DNA from: a virus
Length of the DNA stretch: 64,000 nucleotides
Direction: 5' to 3' (one strand)
IMG/VR virus record: IMGVR_UViG_3300025018_000121
Span: 27,094 to 91,093 of that record
In this document: positions 2,310 through 59,569 of the stretch, piece after piece
How positions within the stretch are numbered: the first letter of the stretch is position 1
Layout: each line of letters opens with the position of its first letter
The notes under the pieces: generated by a model
Database searches by the model: none
What the model saw: only the letters and a program-made list of their open reading frames with translations
What the model was told of the DNA's origin: nothing
Position numbers and translations under genes: made by a program

Positions 2310-3128
2310 ATGTCTAAAGGCTTCGATCTTTCCCGAGTTATTGCGAACTATCAAAATCGCACCCAAGGTAAGTTTGACGTAGTTGCTACTTTGCATGATA
2401 GTGCACCTATTACTGCAAACCTGCACAAAGTTTTAATTACTTTGAGTTCACCTTCTAACGACCGTGCAAAGAACTATCAAGCAATTGCCAATCTTTTTAA
2501 AAATGAGGCTGCTGCTGTTGTAGGTTCTTTCCGTGTAGTTCCGTCTAGCCGCGAACACGTTCTGGTAGGTTTTATTACCAAGAATGTTGAAACCCGCGAA
2601 GTTACTACAGCTTCTTTGGATAAATTCAAAGTAATGGCCGGTAATCTTTTGATGGACACTGAAGACAGTTCGCTTTGGGAGCTGAAAATTGTTGAAGGTA
2701 ATAAATACCTGTCGCGTAAAACTGAAGAAACTCTTTCTGATCTTGTTCAGTTTGCCAGTATTAAACACCACAATCATTTGGCTAACGTTGGTAAAATTCA
2801 GCACCTTGTAATGGCTTCTGTTCAAGAAGGCGAATACGCAGTTTTCGCTTCGCACAATACTAACGAAGTACACGCTGGATACGTTATTTCTAGCGAAGGT
2901 GACAAGCTGGAAATTCTGTGTTCGCATGATGACACTGTAGAAGAAATTAGTTCTGAGCAATTAATTGAATCTACTTTTATCACTAAGAAGTTTGATGAAA
3001 TTGCTATGCCTGAAAATTCGCAAGGCAATAAAGAAGCTATGAAGGAATACTACAAGAAACTCTATTCGTATAGCCCAGAATACTATGAGAAAATGGCTGC
3101 TATTATTGATGGTAACGCTGCAATTTGA
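2310..3128 (+). CDS. Hypothetical, probably highly expressed virion protein
   Basis: GGAG RBS, strongly biased codons (CGT/GCT/GTT), followed by a terminator. Confidence 0.6.
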   Translation: MSKGFDLSRVIANYQNRTQGKFDVVATLHDSAPITANLHKVLITLSSPSNDRAKNYQAIANLFKNEAAAVVGSFRVVPSSREHVLVGFITKNVETREVTTASLDKFKVMAGNLLMDTEDSSLWELKIVEGNKYLSRKTEETLSDLVQFASIKHHNHLANVGKIQHLVMASVQEGEYAVFASHNTNEVHAGYVISSEGDKLEILCSHDDTVEEISSEQLIESTFITKKFDEIAMPENSQGNKEAMKEYYKKLYSYSPEYYEKMAAIIDGNAAI

Positions 3129-3148
3129 TTTAAATAAATATGTAAAGT

Positions 3149-3172
3149 AGGGGAGGGAAACCTCCCCTTTTT
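3149..3172 (+). terminator. Rho-independent terminator
   Basis: AGGGGAGG-GAAA-CCTCCCCT followed by a T run. Confidence 0.8.
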
Positions 3173-3201
3173 ACTATGGTTTACTTACCCGTGAGGTAAA
3201 A

Positions 3202-3924
3202 ATGGCCAAGTTTAAAAAAAGCGGAATGTCTTTTAATTCAGCCGCCCATGAAGAAAAACCTAAAAAGAAAAGAAATCCTGTTGTACTAGAGGCTTCCCCT
3301 GTTGAAAAGAAGAAAAAGAAAAAGAAGAAACCTAAATCAGAATCTAGAGAACTTGCTTTGGTAAGTGAGAAACCTAAAAAGTACGAAGTTGTTAAAAGAA
3401 AAAGGGGCCGCCCCAAAAAGATTCAAACCAAAATACAAAATGCTTCCGAGTTAGCTAATACATTCGGAGGCGATGCTAGAAAGATTCAAAAGCTTCTGCG
3501 TCTAAAAGATGATGACTCTGCTATATTAAAAACACAACGTTCTTTGCTTAATATGCTTATTGAAATGATTCCTATAGCAGAAAATACTTATAGGACATAC
3601 GGTACGCAAAGCGCTGCTTACGCAATGAATGCTTTAGTATCCCAAGTAAGGGAACTAATGCAGGACATTGTTTCCTCTCAGGACAGACAACTCGCCGCAG
3701 ATAATATAATCGCGACTATTATTAATCCAAACATGTTATCGTTTGCTCAATTTATTCTGGATAACAACCACCAATTAATTAAAGAAGTGACAGAGCTAGT
3801 ACCAGTTGAAAGAGCAAAAGACGTTCAGAATATTGTTAACAAGTCTTCTAGAAATGTTGGTATTTATATTCAGACCATGTTGGAAGACTTTAGAAACAGA
3901 ATTCAAAAGGAGCTTTCCGATTGA
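3202..3924 (+). CDS. Basic, AT-hook-containing DNA-binding protein
   Basis: Poly-Lys N-terminus, KRGRPKK AT-hook, helical C-domain. Confidence 0.5.
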   Translation: MAKFKKSGMSFNSAAHEEKPKKKRNPVVLEASPVEKKKKKKKKPKSESRELALVSEKPKKYEVVKRKRGRPKKIQTKIQNASELANTFGGDARKIQKLLRLKDDDSAILKTQRSLLNMLIEMIPIAENTYRTYGTQSAAYAMNALVSQVRELMQDIVSSQDRQLAADNIIATIINPNMLSFAQFILDNNHQLIKEVTELVPVERAKDVQNIVNKSSRNVGIYIQTMLEDFRNRIQKELSD

Positions 3925-4238
3925 AAAAACGTACATTCAGACAAACGAATAAGTTTGGTGTCGTTAAAATTCGCAGAATGTCCTATACAAGTAAGTGGTC
4001 AACAACTTCTAAAGACGTTAAGAAAAGAGATGGTAATAGGTGCGCTATTTGCGGTTCTACTGATGGTCTGGAAACCCATCACATCATTCCGCGTTCTAAA
4101 GGCGGAACCGATAGAAAGACTAATTTAATTACACTATGCGAAAGACACCATAACAAAAGACATAGACATAAACAAAGTTCGCCAAAGAGGAAAAAGAATG
4201 AAAAGGTTAAATCAAAACGAACAATCAAAGCTAGATAA
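3921..4238 (+). CDS. HNH endonuclease
   Basis: RDGNRCAICG...HHIIPRSKGG...NLITLCERHH, the Zn-binding HNH signature. Confidence 0.9.
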   Translation: MKKRTFRQTNKFGVVKIRRMSYTSKWSTTSKDVKKRDGNRCAICGSTDGLETHHIIPRSKGGTDRKTNLITLCERHHNKRHRHKQSSPKRKKNEKVKSKRTIKAR

Positions 4239-4781: not shown

Positions 4782-7700
4782 ATGGATAGAATTAATCCCC
4801 TCAACAAAGAAGTTACTGCTTCTGTTGAAAACGAAAAAGTAAACCTGAAAAAGTTTGCCGAAACTGCGCGTGTACGTCCTAATTTCTCTCCGCAAATTCA
4901 GCCTATGTATAAACAGCCCGCTATCAAAAACGGGGTTGTAGACACAGATGATTTCGGTAATGAAAAGTATTTGTTTATTAACGGTACTTATTTTGATTTG
5001 TTGCGTTTGCCTACAAACTCTGCACGTAACATTTCTAACACTGAAATGAATAAGATGCGTAATGCTATCCGTTCTATTTCAGTACGAAACACTAAAAAGG
5101 AACAAGGCACAGGCCCCGGTAAAGGCCGCAAGGCTTCTGTACCTATTTCAAAGTACAGCACTCTTGCTCATTTTTCTGACCTTGCTTACCGTTTATTGGA
5201 AGCAGGTTTCACGGCTGCTGTCCCTGAAGACATTCGTGTGCGTTCACTGGAAACAGACACTTTAGCAGAGCAGTTAAAAGAAAAAGAAAAAGAAGTAGAC
5301 AGAAAAAGAGCTTCTACCAAAAGCGAGAAAGAAAAAGAACAGCGTGAGCGTAAGCTTATGCTCGAAGGACAGCCCCGCGATTTCTTCAAATACTTTCACG
5401 ATACTTTTACCGACGATTGGAATAAAAAACAGATTCCAATGTTTAGTCAAAAGGTACGTGTAAAAGGCGGCGGTGGCGCTTTTAAAGTCGCACTTCCTAT
5501 CGCGAGCCGTGATCTTTCTAATCTGACTGGCGAATTATTTAATAAATCCGCTCTTGCACGTAGCGAGTATTCCGTTCCTGTATTAAAAATTATCGACGCC
5601 TTGAAAGATATATTTAAGCTGAACCTTCGTAATAAAGGTTCTAGCTCTGTTTCTCTTTCATATAATGAATTTATTAATGCTATACCACAAGCGTACAGAA
5701 CGTCTATTCCTAATTTGGATAAAGCTATTTCTAAATACGTAGATGGTATTCGTATTGAAATAGGCCCTGTTAAACAAGATAAAAACTTTGAGAAACATGT
5801 TCGTGATCTTCAAAAAGATATTGAAACTTTTGAGTTAACGGATGATCTGGTAGATGGCGAAAGACTTGCAGGTTCTTATTTCTATAAAGAAGCTTTGAAT
5901 GCACTAGCTACCTCTTTTATGAGCCGTAGCTTTACTTTCTATTTAGAAACGACTCTGCCGGCTACAGAAGCTCAATTTTTTACACAGACTCCGAAAGATA
6001 AAGTACGTGCAGTAGACGTGCTTGAATTTTTCCGTTCTGTTTACGGCACGTACTGGCTGCCTGTTGTTGAATACTATTATCCAGTAGAAGAAATTGCTCA
6101 GAAAAACGTTGGTTTCCAGCCTAACCCCAAATCAAACGGAGACGGCCTTTGTATTAACAGCAATAACGAATTATTTTATATTCCCAACGTAAACAATATC
6201 GACCGCTTTACTGCACTAAGAAACACAGAACTGTTTGATGAAGCAACCGGCGAATATGTTTTTGAGAAATCAGATGCTGGTATTCCTCTTAATTTGAGAA
6301 ACTATCTGGTTTACACGGATTGGGTTAATAATAAACTGGTTTATACAAACCGTGACGGAAAAATTACTGTTCTTGATATAGAAAACATGAACAGAATTAG
6401 ACCTCACGCTGTTGTTAGCTTATTAGATTCTAATCCTTCTATTCTTGCTAGTGTAAGTAACCCTAACCTGCCTTCCCCATTAGTTACTTTCGGTAATGCT
6501 TGTGACGCTGCTTATAGCCAAGGCTTTACGAATATGCTTTTGGACAAGGCTCAGGCACTTTTGGCAGAAACTCAAAACGCACCCATTAATAGAAAAGTTG
6601 CAGAAGAACTTTTAGGTTCTTTACGCGACCGCGCCCCTATCAATGAATTTATTCAGGTTGCTTATAAAGCCGAAGCTTTCCGTCTTTATTCTTTAGAGGG
6701 TATGAGTGCAGATGAAGCTTATGCTAATGCGTTTAAAAACTCCAATGCGGACGATGATGGTTTAGTTCCTTTCCAAAGAAAAATTGCTTCTGTTGGTATC
6801 CGTGAGTTCATGGGTTCTACTTACGGAAAAATGTTGGCAGAAACTTTAGATTTCTTTGTTGATAAAATTCTTTCAAACTTACAGAACTTTATTCAAGCCT
6901 CTGGCCTCAATTCCATTCGTTTCGCATTAAGCTATTTAGGCTTGATTATCGCACTTAAAAATTACAAAGGTCGATACACAGACTTCAAAATGCTCGATCA
7001 AAAAGAGCGTGAAATTTATTTGAAGTATGACGTAAAAGACGGCGACCCTACTTATGTTGCTAAACTGCCTAACGTAGCCACTGCGAAAGACGGCGAAGGT
7101 CGTATGTTGAAAAACTTCCAGTGGCGAGCATTGTCGCTTCTAGATAAATCGCCTGAGTATTCTATTCTTGCTGTTGATGCAGGTGGTGGTAAAACTATTA
7201 GTATTATCGCTAACATTCTTCAAGAATTACAGAAAAAGAAAGTCACACGTCCTCTGGTAATTTGTCCGTCGCACCTTGTTAAAGACTATGTTGGTGAAAT
7301 AAACTATTTATGCACAGGTAAAGTAAACGCGGTTGTTATCACTAATGATACTATTAAGTCTTATACGAAAAACGGAATGCTTTCGTTGATTGAGAAAGCT
7401 CCTATCAATACTGTATTCATAACCTCTTATGATGCTTTTACTGTAGGCGCTGACTTTAATCTCTATTGCAACGAAGTATTAGAAGACTACAGACACTTGG
7501 ATTTCTTTAGACAAGCTGCCTTCGATGGTGTTTGGTTAGACGAATCTCATTATCTGAAAAATAAATCTACTCGTTTTTATGCTGTAAGTTACGCTATCGC
7601 AGAAATTCCGCTGAAGCGTCTTGCTACTGGTACTTTGGCACCTAACAGACTTAAAGATATTGTTAATCAGTTTGCTTTATTTGACCCGACTGTTTTCGGT

Positions 7701-18279: not shown

Positions 18280-18476
18280 CATCGTTAGGTATGGTAATAG
18301 TATGTTCAATTTCTATAGCGCTTGTACTACTCGCATTTTTCATTGTTAATCGAAGAGAGAAACAACGCAAGCAATATTACAAAGTATGGATTGACCACAT
18401 GCGCAAATCAGGTACACATGAAGCAGAAATAATGAGGCTTACTGGTTTGTATTATCTCTCAGTAGAGGAAGACTAA
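18276..18476 (+). CDS. Small single-TM membrane protein
   Basis: N-terminal hydrophobic helix then basic tail. Confidence 0.6.
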   Translation: MTSLGMVIVCSISIALVLLAFFIVNRREKQRKQYYKVWIDHMRKSGTHEAEIMRLTGLYYLSVEED

Positions 18477-20014
18477 TGTCTACATCTAACCGGATATTTT
18501 TCAAGGAAAGGATTTATATTCCTGAAAAAATAGTGGACATGGATGAAATAGAAAAACGGTTTCACAGAACTGTATACAACGAAGAAAAATGTTTGAGCTG
18601 CGAGTTCTATGAAGACAGACACTGTGACGTGTGTGATGAATGTCCGGGCTTCATCGGTACGTTTAAAATGTACAAGGAAAAAGTTTCCGGTGGTAAAAAT
18701 TATATTGGAATTCCTTATGGTGCCAGAGATCAAATCAAGAAAGTAATTACACGGTCTGCAAAAGGAAAAGATTTGCGGGCCTGTCCGCCGTTTAAAACAA
18801 AGGGAATTAAATTTATTGCTAAGGAAAAGCCCTATCAAAGAAAAGCAAGAAAGAAAATGATCGAACGTGGATATGGTATTTTAAAAGCACCTCCACGTTC
18901 AGGCAAAACTGTAATGGCTACTTCAATTGTATGCAAATTACAAAGCAAGACAATTATTCTAGCTTCTCAGCGTGAGTGGCTTGTAGGTTTTTACGAAACC
19001 TTCTGTGGAAACAAATCCAAAAAAATTAAACCTTTCACAACAATACCTGATTTAGAATCATCAAATAAAAAGATTATTGGCTTTCCAAAAACTCTAAAAG
19101 AATATGAAAAATATGATATATGCCTAGTTACCTACCAATCTCTTAATTCCAGAGGCGGCAAGAGACTGCTTAAAAAAATCAAGGATATGTTTGGCGTACT
19201 TGTTCTTGATGAATGTCATGACGCAGGCGCACCTGTGCTTGCGCGTGTAGTGAACTCTTTTAATTGCAAATACCGTTTTGGTTTATCTGGTACTCCAGAA
19301 AGAAAGGACAAGAAAGACTTTGTTTTTGAATCTGTGTTTGGGGGTATAACGTACAACGCAAAAGTAAAAACACTTAAACCAAAAGTAACTTTCATTGAGA
19401 CACACACCAAATCAGATAAGCAATATTCTTTACCTATTCATGCAGTTAAGTTTCTAGAGCGTGATAAAAGACGTACCAAATTAATCGTTAAGCACATTGT
19501 TAGTGATGTTAAAAGAGGCCACCACGTAGTTGTTCCTGTTGCTCACGTTGCTTATATGAAGATGTTAGTGGAGGAAATAAATAAAAAAGCAGGAAAAGAA
19601 ATTGCTGTTGGTTTCTTTGGTGGACTATCTAAACCAAAGAAAGACCAGATTATTGCAGATGCTCAGAGTGGAAAAATAAAAGTTATTGTAGGCATTAGGA
19701 GAATGGTTCAGGTTGGTGTGAATATTCCACTATGGTCAGCTCTATATGAAATAAATCCGATATCAAATCCTCCAAAGATGAAACAAGAAACAGCACGAAT
19801 TCTAACTGACATACCCGGAAAACTAAGTCCAGTTATTAGACACTTCTTAGACGACGTAGGCTTTTCTAGAGGGTGTCTTAGAACATGTCTATTCAAAACA
19901 TATTTCCCAGAACGTTTTATTATTTCAGAAAAAGATAGGGGTTTGGCGCTTAAATATACATCAAAAGCTACCCTGAGCCATGATATAAGCTCTGCGGGCA
20001 TCAAGAAGTTTTAA
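18476..20014 (+). CDS. SF2 DExH helicase (UvsW/XPB-like)
   Basis: APPRSGKT, VTYQS, DECH, GLSGTPERKD, GVNIP, QETARI; N-terminal Cys cluster. Confidence 0.9.
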   Translation: MSTSNRIFFKERIYIPEKIVDMDEIEKRFHRTVYNEEKCLSCEFYEDRHCDVCDECPGFIGTFKMYKEKVSGGKNYIGIPYGARDQIKKVITRSAKGKDLRACPPFKTKGIKFIAKEKPYQRKARKKMIERGYGILKAPPRSGKTVMATSIVCKLQSKTIILASQREWLVGFYETFCGNKSKKIKPFTTIPDLESSNKKIIGFPKTLKEYEKYDICLVTYQSLNSRGGKRLLKKIKDMFGVLVLDECHDAGAPVLARVVNSFNCKYRFGLSGTPERKDKKDFVFESVFGGITYNAKVKTLKPKVTFIETHTKSDKQYSLPIHAVKFLERDKRRTKLIVKHIVSDVKRGHHVVVPVAHVAYMKMLVEEINKKAGKEIAVGFFGGLSKPKKDQIIADAQSGKIKVIVGIRRMVQVGVNIPLWSALYEINPISNPPKMKQETARILTDIPGKLSPVIRHFLDDVGFSRGCLRTCLFKTYFPERFIISEKDRGLALKYTSKATLSHDISSAGIKKF

Positions 20015-20837
20015 ACTTTTTTATTTTATCAAGTAGTTTTGATTTATTAATACTAGAATTCTTACTCTTTTTATTATTCTCATTTTGTGTTATCAGTCTT
20101 AGATTGCAAGGGTGCGCTACTATTTCTACAGGTACTGGATTTTTGTACTTAAAGAACCCGTCGTACTTTGAAAGTGCGTGGTCTATATGAAAATCTCTCG
20201 ATCTTTTATTGTCTTTGTCTATTATATTTTTATATTTTTTATAATTCCTCATAGTTTCGGCGTGTACTTGCTTACAGTACAATTTAAATTCGCTATACTG
20301 CCTTTCTTGAATACCCTTACTCTTTCTTTTAATTACACTGGCCCTTAATTTACTCTCACTAATACTTCTTATTCTCCAATTCTCCTTTATAGCCCAATTA
20401 CGCATGGCAGTTGAACTTATTCCGTGTAGTATAGCAATTTGAGTTATAGGCCACCCTTTTACCTCATAAAGTCTTTTATAATCGTTCAACTCACTTCGTA
20501 AAATCCATTTCTTTTTAGCTCTCAGTTTCCACTTATCTCTTTTGGCTGTATACAAAATATTTTCTACGGTAACTCCAAGTTCTTTAGCTATGTCTGACAT
20601 CTCTCTTTTACTTTTTTCATATTCTTTTTTCGCATACTTCATTTGCTCTATTGAAATTTTATAGTTCCCAGCCGGCCCGTATTTCCATTTATTTTTTATA
20701 CATAATTGTCTTATTGTTTCGCCTGAACATCCGTAGGCTTCCCCAATAGAATAAAGACGCTCTCCTTTTTCGGCCCTTTCTTTTATATCTTTCATCTTCT
20801 TAACTGTTAATATTTTTGAAAACTCCCGAGGCTTCAT
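20001..20837 (-). CDS. Free-standing HNH homing endonuclease with tandem HTH repeats, inverted relative to neighbours
   Basis: Three HTH-like repeats; C-terminal FHIDH...AHPCNLRLITQNENNKK; GGAG RBS. Confidence 0.8.
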   Translation of the reverse strand: MKPREFSKILTVKKMKDIKERAEKGERLYSIGEAYGCSGETIRQLCIKNKWKYGPAGNYKISIEQMKYAKKEYEKSKREMSDIAKELGVTVENILYTAKRDKWKLRAKKKWILRSELNDYKRLYEVKGWPITQIAILHGISSTAMRNWAIKENWRIRSISESKLRASVIKRKSKGIQERQYSEFKLYCKQVHAETMRNYKKYKNIIDKDNKRSRDFHIDHALSKYDGFFKYKNPVPVEIVAHPCNLRLITQNENNKKSKNSSINKSKLLDKIKKFKTS

Positions 20838-20860
20838 TTTTTATCTCCAAAGCGGTTTTA

Positions 20861-20870
20861 ATAAAATTAG
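20861..20870 (-). promoter_or_regulatory. CTAATTTwA late-promoter-like motif upstream of the HNH gene
   Basis: Related motif at 4120, 23585, 27256 and 35746 (+), upstream of packaging/virion genes. Confidence 0.5.
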
Positions 20871-20891
20871 ACAACTACCGAAGTTTGAACA

Positions 20892-20987
20892 AGACTCTCC
20901 CGTGAAGAAATGGCGAAGGCTGTAAAGTATACCAGTAAGAGAACAATTAACCATGACAAAAGTGGCAGTGGCATTCGACAGTTCTAA
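20892..20987 (+). pseudogene. Stranded second copy of the helicase 3' end (31 codons plus stop)
   Basis: RLSREEMAKAVKYTSKRTINHDKSGSGIRQF* aligns without gaps to the helicase end IISEKDRGLALKYTSKATLSHDISSAGIKKF* (14/31 identical). Confidence 0.85.
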
Positions 20988-20996
20988 GGAACAGTT

Positions 20997-21689
20997 ATGA
21001 ACAACACTTATAAAAGAAAAGATTTTAAAAAATCTGCACCAACAAAAAAGGGAGACTTTAACGTAAGTCTCCCAGATTCATCTTACGAACACAAATTACT
21101 AACCTCACACGGAGTAGCACGGCAGGTAATGACGTTCCCTTCTTTTTCGTTAGAGAATCATGTAGCAAACTTTGTATCTGAAGTGGACGGTTTAAAACCA
21201 AAAAGTGTTCCGAAACAAAAACAACTAGACGCAGTAAAGAAAGTATATGAGAACCCATTTAAAGCACCTTACGTTTTTTGTATTTCTGGTAATCCTAATG
21301 ACATGCGAGCTAAAATGCTGGCCGTTATGATTCTCAGTAGAGCAATACATTTATTCAGGTCACAAAAAGATTTAGACGAAAAAACGGTTAGGAAACTAAA
21401 GCACAAGTCTAGTCCTGTATTTCATAATGTAATGGGATGGTCAAAAAATCCGTTACTGGAAAGCAGTAATTCTCCTAGTCTTCTAGTTTTGTCTAATGTT
21501 CCAAAAGGCATGACTCAATACAAGCAAGAAAAACTAAGAGATATATTAGAGAAATACTCAGATGTTCCTAGAATTGTTGTGACTACTGGACATGACCCTG
21601 TTACTTTTTTTAACGGGTCTTTGTATATGTCTGTTAACTATGTCTGTTACCTGACAGATAAGATCGTGAAAAAATCACACGAAATTTAA
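20997..21689 (+). CDS. Hypothetical protein, possible degenerate helicase loader
   Basis: Directly upstream of DnaB; strand-helix pattern like a P-loop fold but no intact Walker A. Confidence 0.45.
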   Translation: MNNTYKRKDFKKSAPTKKGDFNVSLPDSSYEHKLLTSHGVARQVMTFPSFSLENHVANFVSEVDGLKPKSVPKQKQLDAVKKVYENPFKAPYVFCISGNPNDMRAKMLAVMILSRAIHLFRSQKDLDEKTVRKLKHKSSPVFHNVMGWSKNPLLESSNSPSLLVLSNVPKGMTQYKQEKLRDILEKYSDVPRIVVTTGHDPVTFFNGSLYMSVNYVCYLTDKIVKKSHEI

Positions 21690-21699
21690 GAGAGGGAAT

Positions 21700-23013
21700 A
21701 TGAAACTGTTTTCTAACCGTTTGGAAATGCAAGCCATCTACAATATCTGCGAAGGTAAAACTAAATACAGTAGTGTCATGCTTGCTTCGTTGAGCGAAGA
21801 CCATTTTCATTCTGAATACTCTAAAGAGATTATAGGCAGAATTAAACGTGTAACTCAGATTAATGGAGAGATACCTAACATAAAGGAAATCAGCGTAGAC
21901 CCTGTAATTTCAGAAGACTCCCGCAAAGCTATTTCCAAGTTTGAAGGGGACATAGTTGACTCCCGTCGAAAGTCTTTGAAAATAGTTAATAATCTTCACA
22001 AATACTATCAGATGCGAAAGCTTTATTTCCTGTCTGAAAAAATCAACGAAGCCCTTTTAAGAGATAAAGTAGATGTAGAAAAACTGGTAAACCAAACCGC
22101 ACAAGAAATATCTAAGGTATCTATAAAAATTGATTCGCAACAGCAGATGTTTAACCTTGGGGGTAACGGTACTTTTTCTAAGGTACTAAAGAAACTTACC
22201 AATGATGAAAAACCCGAAATGATTCCTACAGGGTTTTCAGATTTTGACAGAACTAACGGTGGTTTGTTTTATGGTTCTATGGTTTTGATTGGTGGTACAA
22301 CAGGTGGCGGCAAATCCAGTCTTGCTATTCAACTTTTGAAAAACATGGCGGAAAATGCGGAGAGTTGCGTATACGTTCCTCTGGAAATGACAGAGGTAGA
22401 AAGCGGCGCTCGATTAATGTCCAACCTATCAGGAATTAGTCTACTAAAGATACTTCAAAAGAAACTTACCCGTGCGGAGAAAAAGAAAGTAATTAGTGAA
22501 GGAAAAAAGTTTCATGCCAAGTTGAAGAAACAAGGCAACATGTATTCTATTATGTCACCTGAAGAAGACATGACAGCGGAGGAGATTTTGTTAATGCTTC
22601 AGCCTTACGGATTCCGCGTAATTCTGATCGACTATATTTCTCTGTTAAAAGGCGTAGATGGCGAAGAATCTTGGAAGCAACTTTCAAATGTTGCGCGTAT
22701 GTGTAAGATTTACGCGAAGACTCACAACATTATTGTTATTCTTTTGGTACAGATTAATGATGAAGGCTATATTCGTTATTCAAAAGGCGTAGAAGAACAC
22801 GCAAACAATGCTTGGTATTTTGTAGCGAATAAAGAAACCCGTGAAGCTGGCGTTTTAAATATTACTCAGAAGAAAGCACGTAACCAAGCCATGTTTGATT
22901 TTCAACTGGCTTTTGAAGCTGACGTTATGCGGATATACGATATGGATAAAAGCACGGCAAGCAGTAATGAAAGCGGAGACACTGAAGAACTAAGTGATAT
23001 GAGTGGTGACTAA
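21700..23013 (+). CDS. dnaB: Replicative DnaB-like helicase
   Basis: IPTGFSDFD, GGTTGGGKS, LEM, ILIDYISLL, LLVQIN, KARN. Confidence 0.9.
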   Translation: MKLFSNRLEMQAIYNICEGKTKYSSVMLASLSEDHFHSEYSKEIIGRIKRVTQINGEIPNIKEISVDPVISEDSRKAISKFEGDIVDSRRKSLKIVNNLHKYYQMRKLYFLSEKINEALLRDKVDVEKLVNQTAQEISKVSIKIDSQQQMFNLGGNGTFSKVLKKLTNDEKPEMIPTGFSDFDRTNGGLFYGSMVLIGGTTGGGKSSLAIQLLKNMAENAESCVYVPLEMTEVESGARLMSNLSGISLLKILQKKLTRAEKKKVISEGKKFHAKLKKQGNMYSIMSPEEDMTAEEILLMLQPYGFRVILIDYISLLKGVDGEESWKQLSNVARMCKIYAKTHNIIVILLVQINDEGYIRYSKGVEEHANNAWYFVANKETREAGVLNITQKKARNQAMFDFQLAFEADVMRIYDMDKSTASSNESGDTEELSDMSGD

Positions 23014-23664: not shown

Positions 23665-26600
23665 ATGAAAACCTCAGATGTTAAATTTAGTAAAAGAAAA
23701 GCATTAGCAAAAGGAAAGAACTGTTTAAATTGTGCTTCCTTTTCCAAGTGCAGTAAAAGTAAAAAGTCAGGGTCTTATGTTTGCGAATCCTACAAGAAAA
23801 TAAAAGTAAAGGGAGAAAATGCTTTTTCTCTAGAGGATATGTTTGCTGATACTAATTTCCACGTAGCAGATGACTACTCAGACTTCGTTCCCATTGAAGA
23901 CGAACACGACTTTAAAAATATGGAAATTAATGTCGTTAAAATGATGGACGAAATCTTCGAGAGCGAAAATCCCTACCCCCGTGACTTAAAAATTGATGAT
24001 CGTGACTTACCGGAATTTAAAAATATTTATGAATACTTCTTTGACCCTGTTTATGGTCTAGCAAAAAATATGCAGCCTTTTTCTAGGCAGCTATGGGCTG
24101 GAGTAAAACTCTTTGGTGATTACTGCCCTATATGCTCAGACCACAAATTTATGGAGGACATTGAAAATTGCCCTATTTCTATGAGAGCAATTGATTTTCC
24201 AGAACATGTAGTATTTATGGAAAATGGAAAATGCCCTAAATGCAAAGGACATAAGTTAGACTTTGTTAAAAAAGGTTACATGAATTTTTATAGAGACTTT
24301 GCAGCTTGCTTAGGACAACGTTCCGGTAAGTCTGTGACTTTTTCTATGTTTAGTGGATATCATCACCACAAGTTTTTAAAAATGGGAAAGCCTGCTGAAT
24401 TATTAACAGGTCTGCCTAACGTAACTCTAACCGCAACATATACGGCAACAGATTTTAAAACTGCTATGGAAACCTTGTGGCAGCCTTTTGTAGATATTAT
24501 TGACGAATCGCCGTGGTTTAAAGCTTATCACTCTATGCTAGACCACTATGGTAAAAAATACGGCGAAGAAATTTATCGTTTTAAAGAAAGTTTCCTACAT
24601 TATAAACACACTAAAATGTTTACGTCGGCTGCTTCACCTAACAAAAGAACAATGCGTGGTCGTTGTTTAACAGGTGATACTCTTGTTAACACGTCACAAG
24701 GCACTATGCACTTTTCTGAATTTATTAAAGAAATGGACTACAATAAAACCGATCTACAGATTATGTCGCACCTTGGTGGGCGTACTGTAAGCCATACCTA
24801 CAAGTCAGAAGAAACAGAAACCTATAAATTAAGAACCCGAAATGGTTTTTCTGTAGAAGGTACTCCAGAGCATCCAATGCTTGTTTTAAATGAAGACCTT
24901 TCTATGGATTGGGTTACTTTAGATAAATTAAAAGTAGGGCAATGGATAGTATCAAAAACAAATAAAGAGAAAACCCTGTACGGAAATGCGAAGCTGTCTA
25001 AAACAGATGCTGAATTACTCGGATACTTTGTAGCTAACGGTTATAGGAATGAAGTTTCGACAAACGATCAAGACGTAGCCAACCGCTTAATTTATCTAGG
25101 TAAAAAGATAACTGGAGTAATTCCAACCCATACTAAAAATAATTCTTCTATTCGCGCAGACTCTTACAGGTTTATCTACAAAAACGGGGAGTCTAATTTC
25201 GTAAGAGACTACTTAAATCCTTTAGGGTATGACTTTAAAAATTCAAAAGATAAAATGATTCCTGCTATTGTCAGGATGGCCCCTAGAGAAGTTATGCACG
25301 AATTTTTGGAAGCTTATTTTAAATGTGATAGTGGTATTAATGGAGGCTCAAAAAATTCCCCTTCAGAAATAGAGGTGGGTTCCGCTAGTAAAAAACTGGC
25401 TAAACAACTACACGTTATTTTATTTAAAAACTACGGTATACTTGGAAGACTGACCAAGCACACTTTCTATGATAAACTGAACAAAACTACCGGAAACTTT
25501 AATGCAAAAAGAAACCATTGGACTATTACGATAACTGGTTACGACGCGAACCTATTTTTGCAGACTTTCAAGAAAGCAAAAGTTCAAAAATACAAAGATA
25601 GAATAAAAGACGTACCTAAAGGCTTTATGTCCGACAGAAGAAGTGTTCCTTATGTAAGAAAATTTCTTTGGGACTTATACGAAAACTCCCGACTGGTAGA
25701 TACATTAGGTAAAAGACTCAGAAGACTTATTGCAGAAAATGGCAGTGTAGTCTTAAACAATATCAAGCCCAAGTGTTTTGATAGGTTACGTTCTAGTAGA
25801 GATATTTACGAAGAAACGCCAGAATACTTAATTTACGGAGACGATTGGGATATTTTAATACCAAGAATTAAAGACCTTAATTTAAGCAAGGGTACTGCAC
25901 TTAAAGACTTTTTATCTTTTGAGGGGCACTTTGAACAAGTAGTTGAGATTAAAAAATCTTCTAAAAAGAAAACTGTATACGACGTTACCGTACCGGATGG
26001 CCATGCTTTTATTGCAAATTGTCTGGTTTCTCACAATACCCGTTTTGAATATGCAATCGACGAATTAGGCTGGTTTGATGCTTCAAGTGAATCAAAAGAT
26101 AAAGTACGTATTTCCGCAGATGAAATTTACGGCGCACTAGACCGTTCAATGAAAACAGTTATGTCTGCATCTAAAAGATTATTTCTACAAGGTTATAGTG
26201 GTACAACACCGGGAATGTCTTTTAATATTTCTTCGCCTTCTGCCTACGACGATAAAATTATGTCTATGTGCAGAATCCATAAAGACTCTAGAGTAGTTTT
26301 AGCGCTTCACTTACCCACTTGGAAATACAATCCTAAAGAGCCTAAAGAAAACTTCAGAAAAGAATACATGGAAGACCCTATAAAAGCTGAACGTGACTTT
26401 GGTGCTAATCCTCCTATGGCAGCCTCGCCATTCTTTGAAAACATTAACGCCATAGTTCCAAACTTCACAGACAAAGCAAATTTCGCAACTTACGAATATT
26501 CATTAAAGAAAGTAAATAACACACTTTATAAATCTGCTAAATTGAAGTTGAGTGTACGCGGCGATATTTACCCCTCAGTCCTCGCACTAGATGCTGGTTT

Positions 26601-27252
26601 TTCTAATAACTCTTTTGCTCTTGCTGTCGGCCACCGTAGAGAAAAAGAAACTATATTTACTACCCTTATTGAAATCATGCCAGATAAGGGTAAAAATGTT
26701 TTGAACTACAATTCTATCTTTGAAGAAGTAGTAGTCCCTTTAGTAGACTCATTAAATGTTCAATTTATTTGTGCTGACCGTTGGAACTCTTTATTCCTTT
26801 TACATAAATTAGAAGAAGATAAAAAAATAAAGCAAATGCAGTATAGCGTTAAATACGCAGACTTCAATTTATTTAAATCATACTCTGAGGGTAATAGAAT
26901 TCTATTTCCCAAAATGGAAATGCGAGCAGAAAAAGCATTAACTATTCCTAGCACAGAATACATAGAGAAGTTTACGTACAAACCCTGTGCCCATTTATTC
27001 TCTCAGATATTTACTGTTGAAGACAAAGGCCGCACTGTTGATAAAGGTAAAAACAGAACTGACGATTTATTTAGAGCTGTGGTATTAGCCTCTAGGTTCT
27101 TACTTGATGATTCATGGGTAGCTGAGAATCTTAATTTAACCAAAAGAAAAAACAGCAATATGGGAATCGTTGCACTGGCTAATGGTGCAAGCCCTACAGG
27201 CACTTTAGCTACGGCAACAGGTAAAGGAATTATTTCGTCAGGAGGTCATTAA
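23665..27252 (+). CDS. terL: Terminase large subunit containing an intein
   Basis: Walker A GQRSGKS, Walker B AIDE after the intein, ISSP, nuclease LALDAG, ADRWNS, TDDL; upstream of portal. Confidence 0.88.
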   Translation: MKTSDVKFSKRKALAKGKNCLNCASFSKCSKSKKSGSYVCESYKKIKVKGENAFSLEDMFADTNFHVADDYSDFVPIEDEHDFKNMEINVVKMMDEIFESENPYPRDLKIDDRDLPEFKNIYEYFFDPVYGLAKNMQPFSRQLWAGVKLFGDYCPICSDHKFMEDIENCPISMRAIDFPEHVVFMENGKCPKCKGHKLDFVKKGYMNFYRDFAACLGQRSGKSVTFSMFSGYHHHKFLKMGKPAELLTGLPNVTLTATYTATDFKTAMETLWQPFVDIIDESPWFKAYHSMLDHYGKKYGEEIYRFKESFLHYKHTKMFTSAASPNKRTMRGRCLTGDTLVNTSQGTMHFSEFIKEMDYNKTDLQIMSHLGGRTVSHTYKSEETETYKLRTRNGFSVEGTPEHPMLVLNEDLSMDWVTLDKLKVGQWIVSKTNKEKTLYGNAKLSKTDAELLGYFVANGYRNEVSTNDQDVANRLIYLGKKITGVIPTHTKNNSSIRADSYRFIYKNGESNFVRDYLNPLGYDFKNSKDKMIPAIVRMAPREVMHEFLEAYFKCDSGINGGSKNSPSEIEVGSASKKLAKQLHVILFKNYGILGRLTKHTFYDKLNKTTGNFNAKRNHWTITITGYDANLFLQTFKKAKVQKYKDRIKDVPKGFMSDRRSVPYVRKFLWDLYENSRLVDTLGKRLRRLIAENGSVVLNNIKPKCFDRLRSSRDIYEETPEYLIYGDDWDILIPRIKDLNLSKGTALKDFLSFEGHFEQVVEIKKSSKKKTVYDVTVPDGHAFIANCLVSHNTRFEYAIDELGWFDASSESKDKVRISADEIYGALDRSMKTVMSASKRLFLQGYSGTTPGMSFNISSPSAYDDKIMSMCRIHKDSRVVLALHLPTWKYNPKEPKENFRKEYMEDPIKAERDFGANPPMAASPFFENINAIVPNFTDKANFATYEYSLKKVNNTLYKSAKLKLSVRGDIYPSVLALDAGFSNNSFALAVGHRREKETIFTTLIEIMPDKGKNVLNYNSIFEEVVVPLVDSLNVQFICADRWNSLFLLHKLEEDKKIKQMQYSVKYADFNLFKSYSEGNRILFPKMEMRAEKALTIPSTEYIEKFTYKPCAHLFSQIFTVEDKGRTVDKGKNRTDDLFRAVVLASRFLLDDSWVAENLNLTKRKNSNMGIVALANGASPTGTLATATGKGIISSGGH
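24664..26037 (+). mobile_element. Intein (458 aa) with LAGLIDADG-type endonuclease domain
   Basis: MRGR|CLTGDT, GTPEHP block B, LLGYFVANG and FLEAYFKCDS, VYDVTV...SHN|T. Confidence 0.95.
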
Positions 27253-59482: not shown

Positions 59483-59569
59483 TGGTGCCCGGTGCCGGAC
59501 TCGAACCGGCACGGAGTTTCCTCCGAGGGATTTTAAGTCCCATGCGTCTACCAATTTCGCCAACCGGGC
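59483..59569 (-). tRNA. tRNA-Leu(UAA)
   Basis: GCCCGGT acceptor, D arm, GGGA-CTTAAAA-TCCC, long variable arm GGAG-GAAA-CTCC, GCCGG-TTCGAGT-CCGGC, A-CCA. Confidence 0.95.

Follow-up and report, generated by a model that had tools for sequence, protein, structure and literature searches.

Two diverged copies of a helicase gene end flank an HNH-like endonuclease gene in a virus genome fragment

In the present work, a window of 64,000 nucleotides (positions 27,094 to 91,093 of the IMG/VR virus record IMGVR_UViG_3300025018_000121) was analysed, which forms part of a 91-kb record with a CheckV completeness of 37%. It encodes an intact helicase, the gene of which ends in an overlap with an antisense gene for an HNH-like endonuclease, and a second, diverged copy of the helicase end lies on the other side of this gene. 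The explanation that we favour, with a probability of roughly three in four, is that a cassette composed of a diverged helicase tail and the endonuclease gene entered the helicase gene about 32 codons before its stop, whereby the helicase stayed whole and its native end was stranded downstream.

Two homologous helicase ends

The 31 codons that close the helicase gene (tail A) encode IISEKDRGLALKYTSKATLSHDISSAGIKKF, while those found behind the endonuclease gene (tail B) encode RLSREEMAKAVKYTSKRTINHDKSGSGIRQF. Without any gap, 14 of 31 residues are identical (BLOSUM62 score 76) and the stop codons are in register, whereas only 50 of 96 bases (52%) agree at the DNA level. When the last 45 helicase residues were compared by tblastn with the six frames of the window, tail B was the sole significant second match, with an expectation value (E) of 8e-7. 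Furthermore, an end-anchored background of 853 open, stop-ended frames of 31 codons in the window gave a mean score of -26 with a standard deviation of 11 and a next best score of 19, which places the tail pair about 9 standard deviations above background. The duplication is real and chance is excluded, in agreement with an earlier sequence-only reading of this DNA, according to which two homologous helicase C-termini of the same length flank an inverted gene.

Tail B retains residues conserved in the helicase family, namely KYTSK and the terminal F, and its frame is shut upstream by the in-frame TGA in the spacer (Table 1), so that about 32 codons are stranded. The exact position of the junction is uncertain by a few codons. 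By eye, the remnant may extend 5′ of position 20889 (a possible GGA to TGA change), which is suggestive only and is not claimed. On the left side, the last 14 nt of tail A overlap the 3′ end of the antisense endonuclease open reading frame (ORF), and therefore tail A and the endonuclease gene are treated as one cassette. The GC content of both tails and of the endonuclease gene, overall and at third codon positions (GC3), was uninformative.

The helicase has 251 homologues of similar length, and F481 and Y494 are near-invariant in the family; Y494 lies inside tail A and is retained there. Its ORF is continuous and full length, so that no splicing is needed, and an Rfam search over 19500-21300 gave no intron match at E ≤ 1. 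The arrangement is thus neither that of a group I intron nor that of an intein, and the earlier view that the helicase was kept intact without splicing holds.

Table 1. Features of the helicase locus, copies of the promoter-like motif and introns at related endonuclease genes (window positions, unless a contig is named)
Feature	Position	Strand	Details
Superfamily 2 (SF2; ResIII/Helicase_C) helicase gene	18476-20014	+	512 aa, intact, N-terminal Cys4 ribbon; Pfam ResIII 2e-18, PHROG 16
Attached tail A, probably cassette-borne	19919-20014	+	31 codons (19919-20011) and stop (20012-20014)
Free-standing homing-endonuclease-like gene	20001-20837	-	278 aa; three helix-turn-helix (HTH) modules and C-terminal HNH-like nuclease domain
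Spacer and right junction of the insertion	20838-20891		54 nt; holds the ribosome-binding site (RBS) of the endonuclease gene and in-frame TGA 20886-20888
Stranded tail B, probably the native helicase end	20892-20987	+	31 codons (20892-20984) and stop (20985-20987)
Promoter-like motif TGTAAAGTA within tail B	20921-20929	+	67 nt 5′ of the downstream ATG
Conserved downstream replication-module gene	20997-21689	+	PHROG 20094
DnaB gene	21700-23013		follows the PHROG 20094 gene
Copies of TGTAAAGTA	3141, 11532, 15567, 16494, 17420, 20921, 33013	+
Copies of TGTAAAGTA	48064, 55161, 59588	-
Group I introns beside same-family endonuclease genes	L156:1821-2172, 3180-3386		Rfam RF00028
Group I intron beside same-family endonuclease gene	L176:942-1246		Rfam RF00028
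Group I introns beside same-family endonuclease genes	L185:2547-2803, 3290-3530, 4044-4220		Rfam RF00028

Divergence of the two tails

The differences between tails A and B are distributed as 12, 12 and 22 over codon positions 1, 2 and 3, and different codons are used at 11 of the 14 conserved residues. The synonymous divergence (dS) is saturated, while the nonsynonymous divergence (dN) is 0.51. As a neutral model, a copy of tail A was left to decay in simulation to the same 46 differences; at least 14 identical residues were kept in only 2 of 10,000 runs (P ~2e-4), and the frame stayed open in 18%. The third-position excess and the rejection of neutral decay argue that the tails are alleles from different genomes rather than a decayed local duplicate, and that they probably diverged there as working helicase ends under purifying selection.

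In addition, the two tails are each other's best match, with a local score of 79, and none of the 242 relatives compared has a tail that scores above 53. This suggests that the donor was a fairly close phage, nearer to the window phage than anything sampled. Just 5′ of tail A, helicase residues 466-481 (window 19871-19918) resemble most closely a distant relative, P0026 (0.87 of the self score), and fit the nearest clade less well (0.51). This stretch may be a co-conversion tract, a weak indication given its 16 residues.

Assignment of the native end

The gene order of helicase, PHROG 20094 gene and DnaB is kept across 123 related loci. In many HNH-less relatives, among them the nearest ones for which DNA context is available, the helicase gene ends directly at or within the start codon of the next gene (L082, L003, L004, L014 and L125; TAATG in L082 and L014, TAAATG in L004, TAAaATG in L003). 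In the window, it is tail B that adjoins the next gene, and its TAA overlaps an AAGGA situated 9 nt 5′ of the ATG at 20997.

Tail B also contains the motif TGTAAAGTA, as noticed before together with the overlap of stop and RBS. The window has ten copies where 1.3 would be expected; all of them run in the direction of the genes, and most are placed 10-70 nt 5′ of tRNA-Leu (59483-59569) or a gene start. Seven of them lie directly upstream of genes or the tRNA, one being 11 nt before tRNA-Leu. The motif is also present 30 nt 5′ of the orthologous downstream gene in the relative L002 and upstream of genes in L082. Its placement suggests that it is probably a clade-specific promoter element, and it fits the view that tail B is the original gene end with an embedded putative promoter for the next gene. 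The putative promoter and the RBS of the next gene inside tail B would then be the reason for its retention. The earlier proposal that the stranded copy is ancestral therefore gains support from the stop/RBS junction, which resembles that of the HNH-less relatives, and from the promoter-like motif.

The inserted endonuclease

For the 278-aa protein, Pfam returned weak HTH matches only, and PHROGs gave weak matches to families annotated as HNH endonuclease. An exhaustive HMMER search yielded 650 homologues at E < 1e-3, three of them full length (27-33% identity); in the others, the shared part is the C-terminal 100 residues, set in many different architectures. Among 93 homologues, D219, H220, N245, N254 and K257 are invariant. 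AlphaFold (AF2) models, with a predicted local distance difference test (pLDDT) value of 88 for the whole protein and 93 for the domain, contain three HTH modules of three helices each and a predicted beta-beta-alpha element (residues 216-257, a beta-hairpin followed by a helix) that carries the invariant residues. D219 and H220 are modelled on strand E216-220, N245 just before strand E246-250, and N254 in helix H251-257.

The HTH modules resemble the DNA-binding domains of GcrA, Tc3 and Myb-type proteins (Z scores of 6-8) and dominate a fold search with the whole protein. The top structural matches of the C-terminal domain are HNH nucleases, although weak ones: 4h9d with Z 5.0-5.3 (at Z 5.0, root-mean-square deviation 4.9 over 72 aligned residues), BrxU with 4.2 and the GVE2 HNH nuclease with 4.0. 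Similarly, the top Foldseek rows for the domain are nearly all HNH domains, none of them significant (E > 0.8). The curated HNH models of Pfam (HNH, HNH_3, HNH_4) did not match the protein, and PF01844 was touched by 2 of 16 domain homologues at E 0.033.

A His-Me finger is recognised by a catalytic His that closes the first strand, mostly as part of a DH pair, by a structural Asn, and by an Asn or His that binds the metal from the next helix. Residues that fit all three roles are present in the 278-aa protein. We therefore read the inserted gene as encoding a divergent HNH-type homing endonuclease on the strength of its motif and predicted topology, outside the curated models. The sequence-only reading had named the gene HNH; the motif and the fold prediction agree with this, while a significant family match is lacking.

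Relatives of the nuclease domain adjoin group I introns in three phage contigs (Table 1), as would suit a function in homing. L156 has two copies of the intron core, which agree at about two thirds of the aligned positions and flank or overlap an endonuclease ORF (2596-3297) between a tube-like and a sheath-like gene. The flank repeats at L156, L176 and L185 had been considered as gene-end duplications and were rejected, as they are group I introns.

A second gene-end duplication

A screen of 52 viral contigs encoding the nuclease domain, in which similar peptides were sought on both sides of the gene, recovered the window itself and one further case around an endonuclease of the same family, in contig L154 (IMGVR_UViG_3300001765_000117, positions 1665-2982). 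Here, the host gene encodes an NAD-dependent DNA ligase with adenylation, OB and BRCT domains, which ends at 1832. The endonuclease gene (1816-2808) lies on the same strand as the ligase gene and begins inside its last codons; the nuclease domains of L154 and the window are 40% identical (E 2e-12). Directly 3′ of the endonuclease stop, a 52-residue copy of the BRCT end is found, 38% identical (E 4e-9), and the TGA of this copy overlaps the start codon (ATG) of the following gene.

The L154 pair also resembles the window pair in its divergence, with 48% DNA identity, 23, 20 and 38 differences at the three codon positions, different codons at 15 of 20 conserved residues and a P below 5e-5 under the neutral model. 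Two unrelated host genes show one architecture with one nuclease family, and this recurrence favours a common mechanism over coincidence. Searches with the L154 ligase and endonuclease revealed no near relatives, the closest endonuclease homologue, P0122, yielded no genomic context, and tblastn with the window or the L154 endonuclease gave no match among 50,697 GenBank phage records.

Distribution and genomic setting

The tail duplication 3′ of the helicase was found in none of the 123 related loci, where the best spurious matches (E ≥ 9e-4) were far away. A tblastn search with the endonuclease against helicase loci L002-L081 gave no match. The endonuclease gene is present as a single copy in the phage's own record and occupies this site in the window while being absent from the same site in relatives, the sporadic presence typical of a free-standing homing endonuclease. 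The gap-filling ORFs tested in relatives were radical SAM, AAA or unassigned proteins, none of them nucleases. A DNA search of the locus against GenBank phages and an exact-pattern scan for tail B among viral contigs gave no match; single-protein scans of viral and metagenome contigs revealed no close relative, and profile scans reached at most 47% identity. Judged by the helicase, the nearest isolates are the jumbo phages phiRSL1 and BcepSaruman and Erwinia and Dickeya jumbo phages (35-39% identity).

Insertions recur at the junction between helicase and next gene in this phage group, where many loci have gaps of 0.3-2 kb. In L002, the nearest relative for which DNA context is available, the helicase and the downstream gene are separated by an ORF (5578-5910) for a Cys-rich, zinc-ribbon-like protein of 110 aa. 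The endonuclease gene of the window has its own Shine-Dalgarno sequence, GGAG, at 20845-20848 on the minus strand, and a minus-strand, terminator-like hairpin with a T-run (21050-21073), directed at this gene, is situated inside the 5′ end of the downstream gene. A second selfish element is present 2.7 kb from the HNH-like gene: a 1195-aa protein encoded at 23665-27252 contains an intein (PF14890, residues 348-791) with a LAGLIDADG_3 domain.

Discussion

In the scenario that we favour, the endonuclease would cleave the conserved 3′ part of the helicase gene in alleles that lack the endonuclease. The left break end would then invade the genome of a co-infecting related donor within the helicase body, and the donor tail and endonuclease gene would be copied during break repair. 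The donor tail A would be fused in frame, giving a full-length helicase that includes the near-invariant Tyr. In the founding event, the right end would have been joined without homology, leaving the last 32 codons of the recipient (B) abutting the next gene. Tail B would no longer be translated with the helicase; its RBS and promoter-like motif for the next gene would explain its persistence. Recombination between A and B seems unlikely at 52% DNA identity, and the target of the endonuclease would presumably be disrupted or altered by the insertion. The idea that the cassette supplied a diverged replacement tail, raised before, is supported by the divergence under purifying selection, the 14-nt interlock, the absence from relatives and the L154 case.

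Several points weigh against this explanation. The direction of the event, with B native and A imported, would rest on synteny and not on phylogeny: compared with relatives P0002-P0005 (proteins only, 54% identity), tail B scores 40, 46, 53 and 38 and tail A 35, 45, 40 and 39, which barely differ. The nuclease domain has no significant match in Pfam, in a profile search of Protein Data Bank (PDB) sequences or in Foldseek, and the record stems from a metagenome assembly.

Since both tails score about equally against relatives and phylogeny does not decide, the direction could be reversed, with tail A native and a cassette of the endonuclease gene and tail B (perhaps with the start of the next gene) having entered after the helicase stop. 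However, such an event needs a donor in which the endonuclease gene already stood upstream of tail B, which amounts to the same duplication, and a left crossover inside the 14-nt overlap of tail A and the endonuclease gene; moreover, the usual stop/RBS junction of the family and the promoter-like motif of the clade belong to tail B and not to A. We regard this as unlikely, and even less credit is given to the idea that tail B, or the 25 codons from an ATG at 20910 within it, forms a mini-gene that is expressed separately and retained for the peptide it encodes. Although its frame is open over 32 codons and keeps the family-conserved residues, the head of the tail B frame has no start codon, upstream of the ATG at 20910 there is only GTGAAGAA, with no clear Shine-Dalgarno sequence such as the neighbouring genes have, and no such gene occurs in any relative; recent stranding and the constraint from promoter and RBS explain the open frame.

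A local tandem duplication of the helicase end, with insertion of the endonuclease gene between the copies and decay of the unused one, would account for the tails being each other's closest match, but it conflicts with purifying selection on both copies, the third-position excess, the synonymous saturation and the rejection of the neutral model at 2e-4, repeated in L154, and is most improbable. The least probable of all is chance similarity or an assembly chimera, which the metagenome-assembled nature of the fragment might suggest: the score stands far above background, tails at 52% DNA identity offer no long exact stretch for an assembler to mis-join, the helicase and the endonuclease each occur as identical proteins on 2 contigs and in three source collections, the identical downstream protein being encoded on four contigs, and L154 is an independent second case. 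Replacement of the gene end by an incoming cassette therefore remains our preferred explanation.

If it holds, a selfish nuclease in an essential phage gene would have a third outcome beside splicing (as intron or intein) and gene splitting, namely to bring its own copy of the gene end. Such a replacement end leaves the host gene intact, sets the invaded allele apart from the target and preserves the native allele as a dated fossil. These fossils mark recombination boundaries and could be used to trace exchange between uncultivated phages. For annotation, the case is a warning that intergenic DNA beside nuclease genes may consist of displaced gene ends still bearing regulatory signals. The finding also draws attention to a widespread nuclease domain that is missed by current family libraries. 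As a tentative extension, which we hold to be possible rather than probable, the family combining HTH modules and an HNH-like domain may represent phage homing endonucleases which, as a class, regularly carry a portable replacement gene end. Jumbo phages would in this way exchange C-terminal tails of replication proteins (helicase, ligase BRCT), with the stranded native ends kept as promoter and RBS of the next gene. The tails concerned are likely protein-contact modules.

Comparison with known systems

Prophages and islands that target tRNA genes or gene ends carry a replacement 3′ end of the target gene. The present case is similar in that the native end is displaced, a substitute is supplied and the gene stays functional. 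In contrast to such elements, which have an integrase and near-identical att repeats, there is no integrase here, the repeats are 52% identical and a nuclease would be the driver. With the Gme HNH nuclease (4h9d), the HNH nuclease of phage GVE2 (5h0o) and I-HmuI (1u3e), the inserted protein shares the DH...N...N motif on a predicted beta-hairpin and helix, although the structural matches to these known nucleases are weak (Z 4-5.3; Foldseek E > 0.8). Unlike in I-HmuI, the nuclease domain follows the DNA-binding modules, in the reverse order.

The Seg and Mob genes of phage T4 encode free-standing homing endonucleases that practise intronless homing. The outcomes described for free-standing phage endonucleases are clean intergenic insertion or gene splitting, as for T4 39/60 and Aeh1 nrdA. 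As with Seg and Mob, the nuclease gene of the window is sporadic, stands between or beside essential replication genes, and presumably spreads through cleavage of endonuclease-less alleles and co-conversion of the flanks. The T4 enzymes are cited in PMC8351571 and PMC10448857. In the phage literature searched, coverage of which is incomplete, no description of a duplicated or replaced gene end was found, and the insertions there are intergenic, intron- or intein-borne, or gene-splitting.

The closest precedent is C-terminal replacement by mobile open reading frames (mORFs) in fungal mitochondria, where endonuclease mORFs bring a foreign C-terminal part into a gene and leave the native C*-terminal part downstream (PMC3630166; see also PMC6279837). 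It has been reported for atp6 of Allomyces macrogynus, for atp6, atp9, cox2 and nad3 of Glomus, for atp9 of Rhizopus and for cox2 of Mortierella, and the mitochondrial test of it was that the native C* is nearly identical to the sequence in sister species (PMC3630166). The mORF-type architecture, an in-frame inserted C-terminal part, an adjacent endonuclease gene and a stranded, presumably native C-terminal part, is found in both the window and L154. As in the fungal cases, an endonuclease ORF lies near the 3′ end of an essential gene, the presumed foreign end is fused in frame, the presumed native end is unused downstream, and the two copies are far more diverged as DNA than as protein. The host here is a phage, and its nuclease is HNH-like with HTH modules, whereas the fungal ones are LAGLIDADG or GIY-YIG enzymes; the endonuclease gene of the window runs antisense to the host gene and out of frame with it, and the stranded end bears the RBS of the next gene and a promoter-like motif. 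Compared with this precedent, the phage host, the nuclease family, the antisense arrangement and the likely regulatory role of the stranded end are new.

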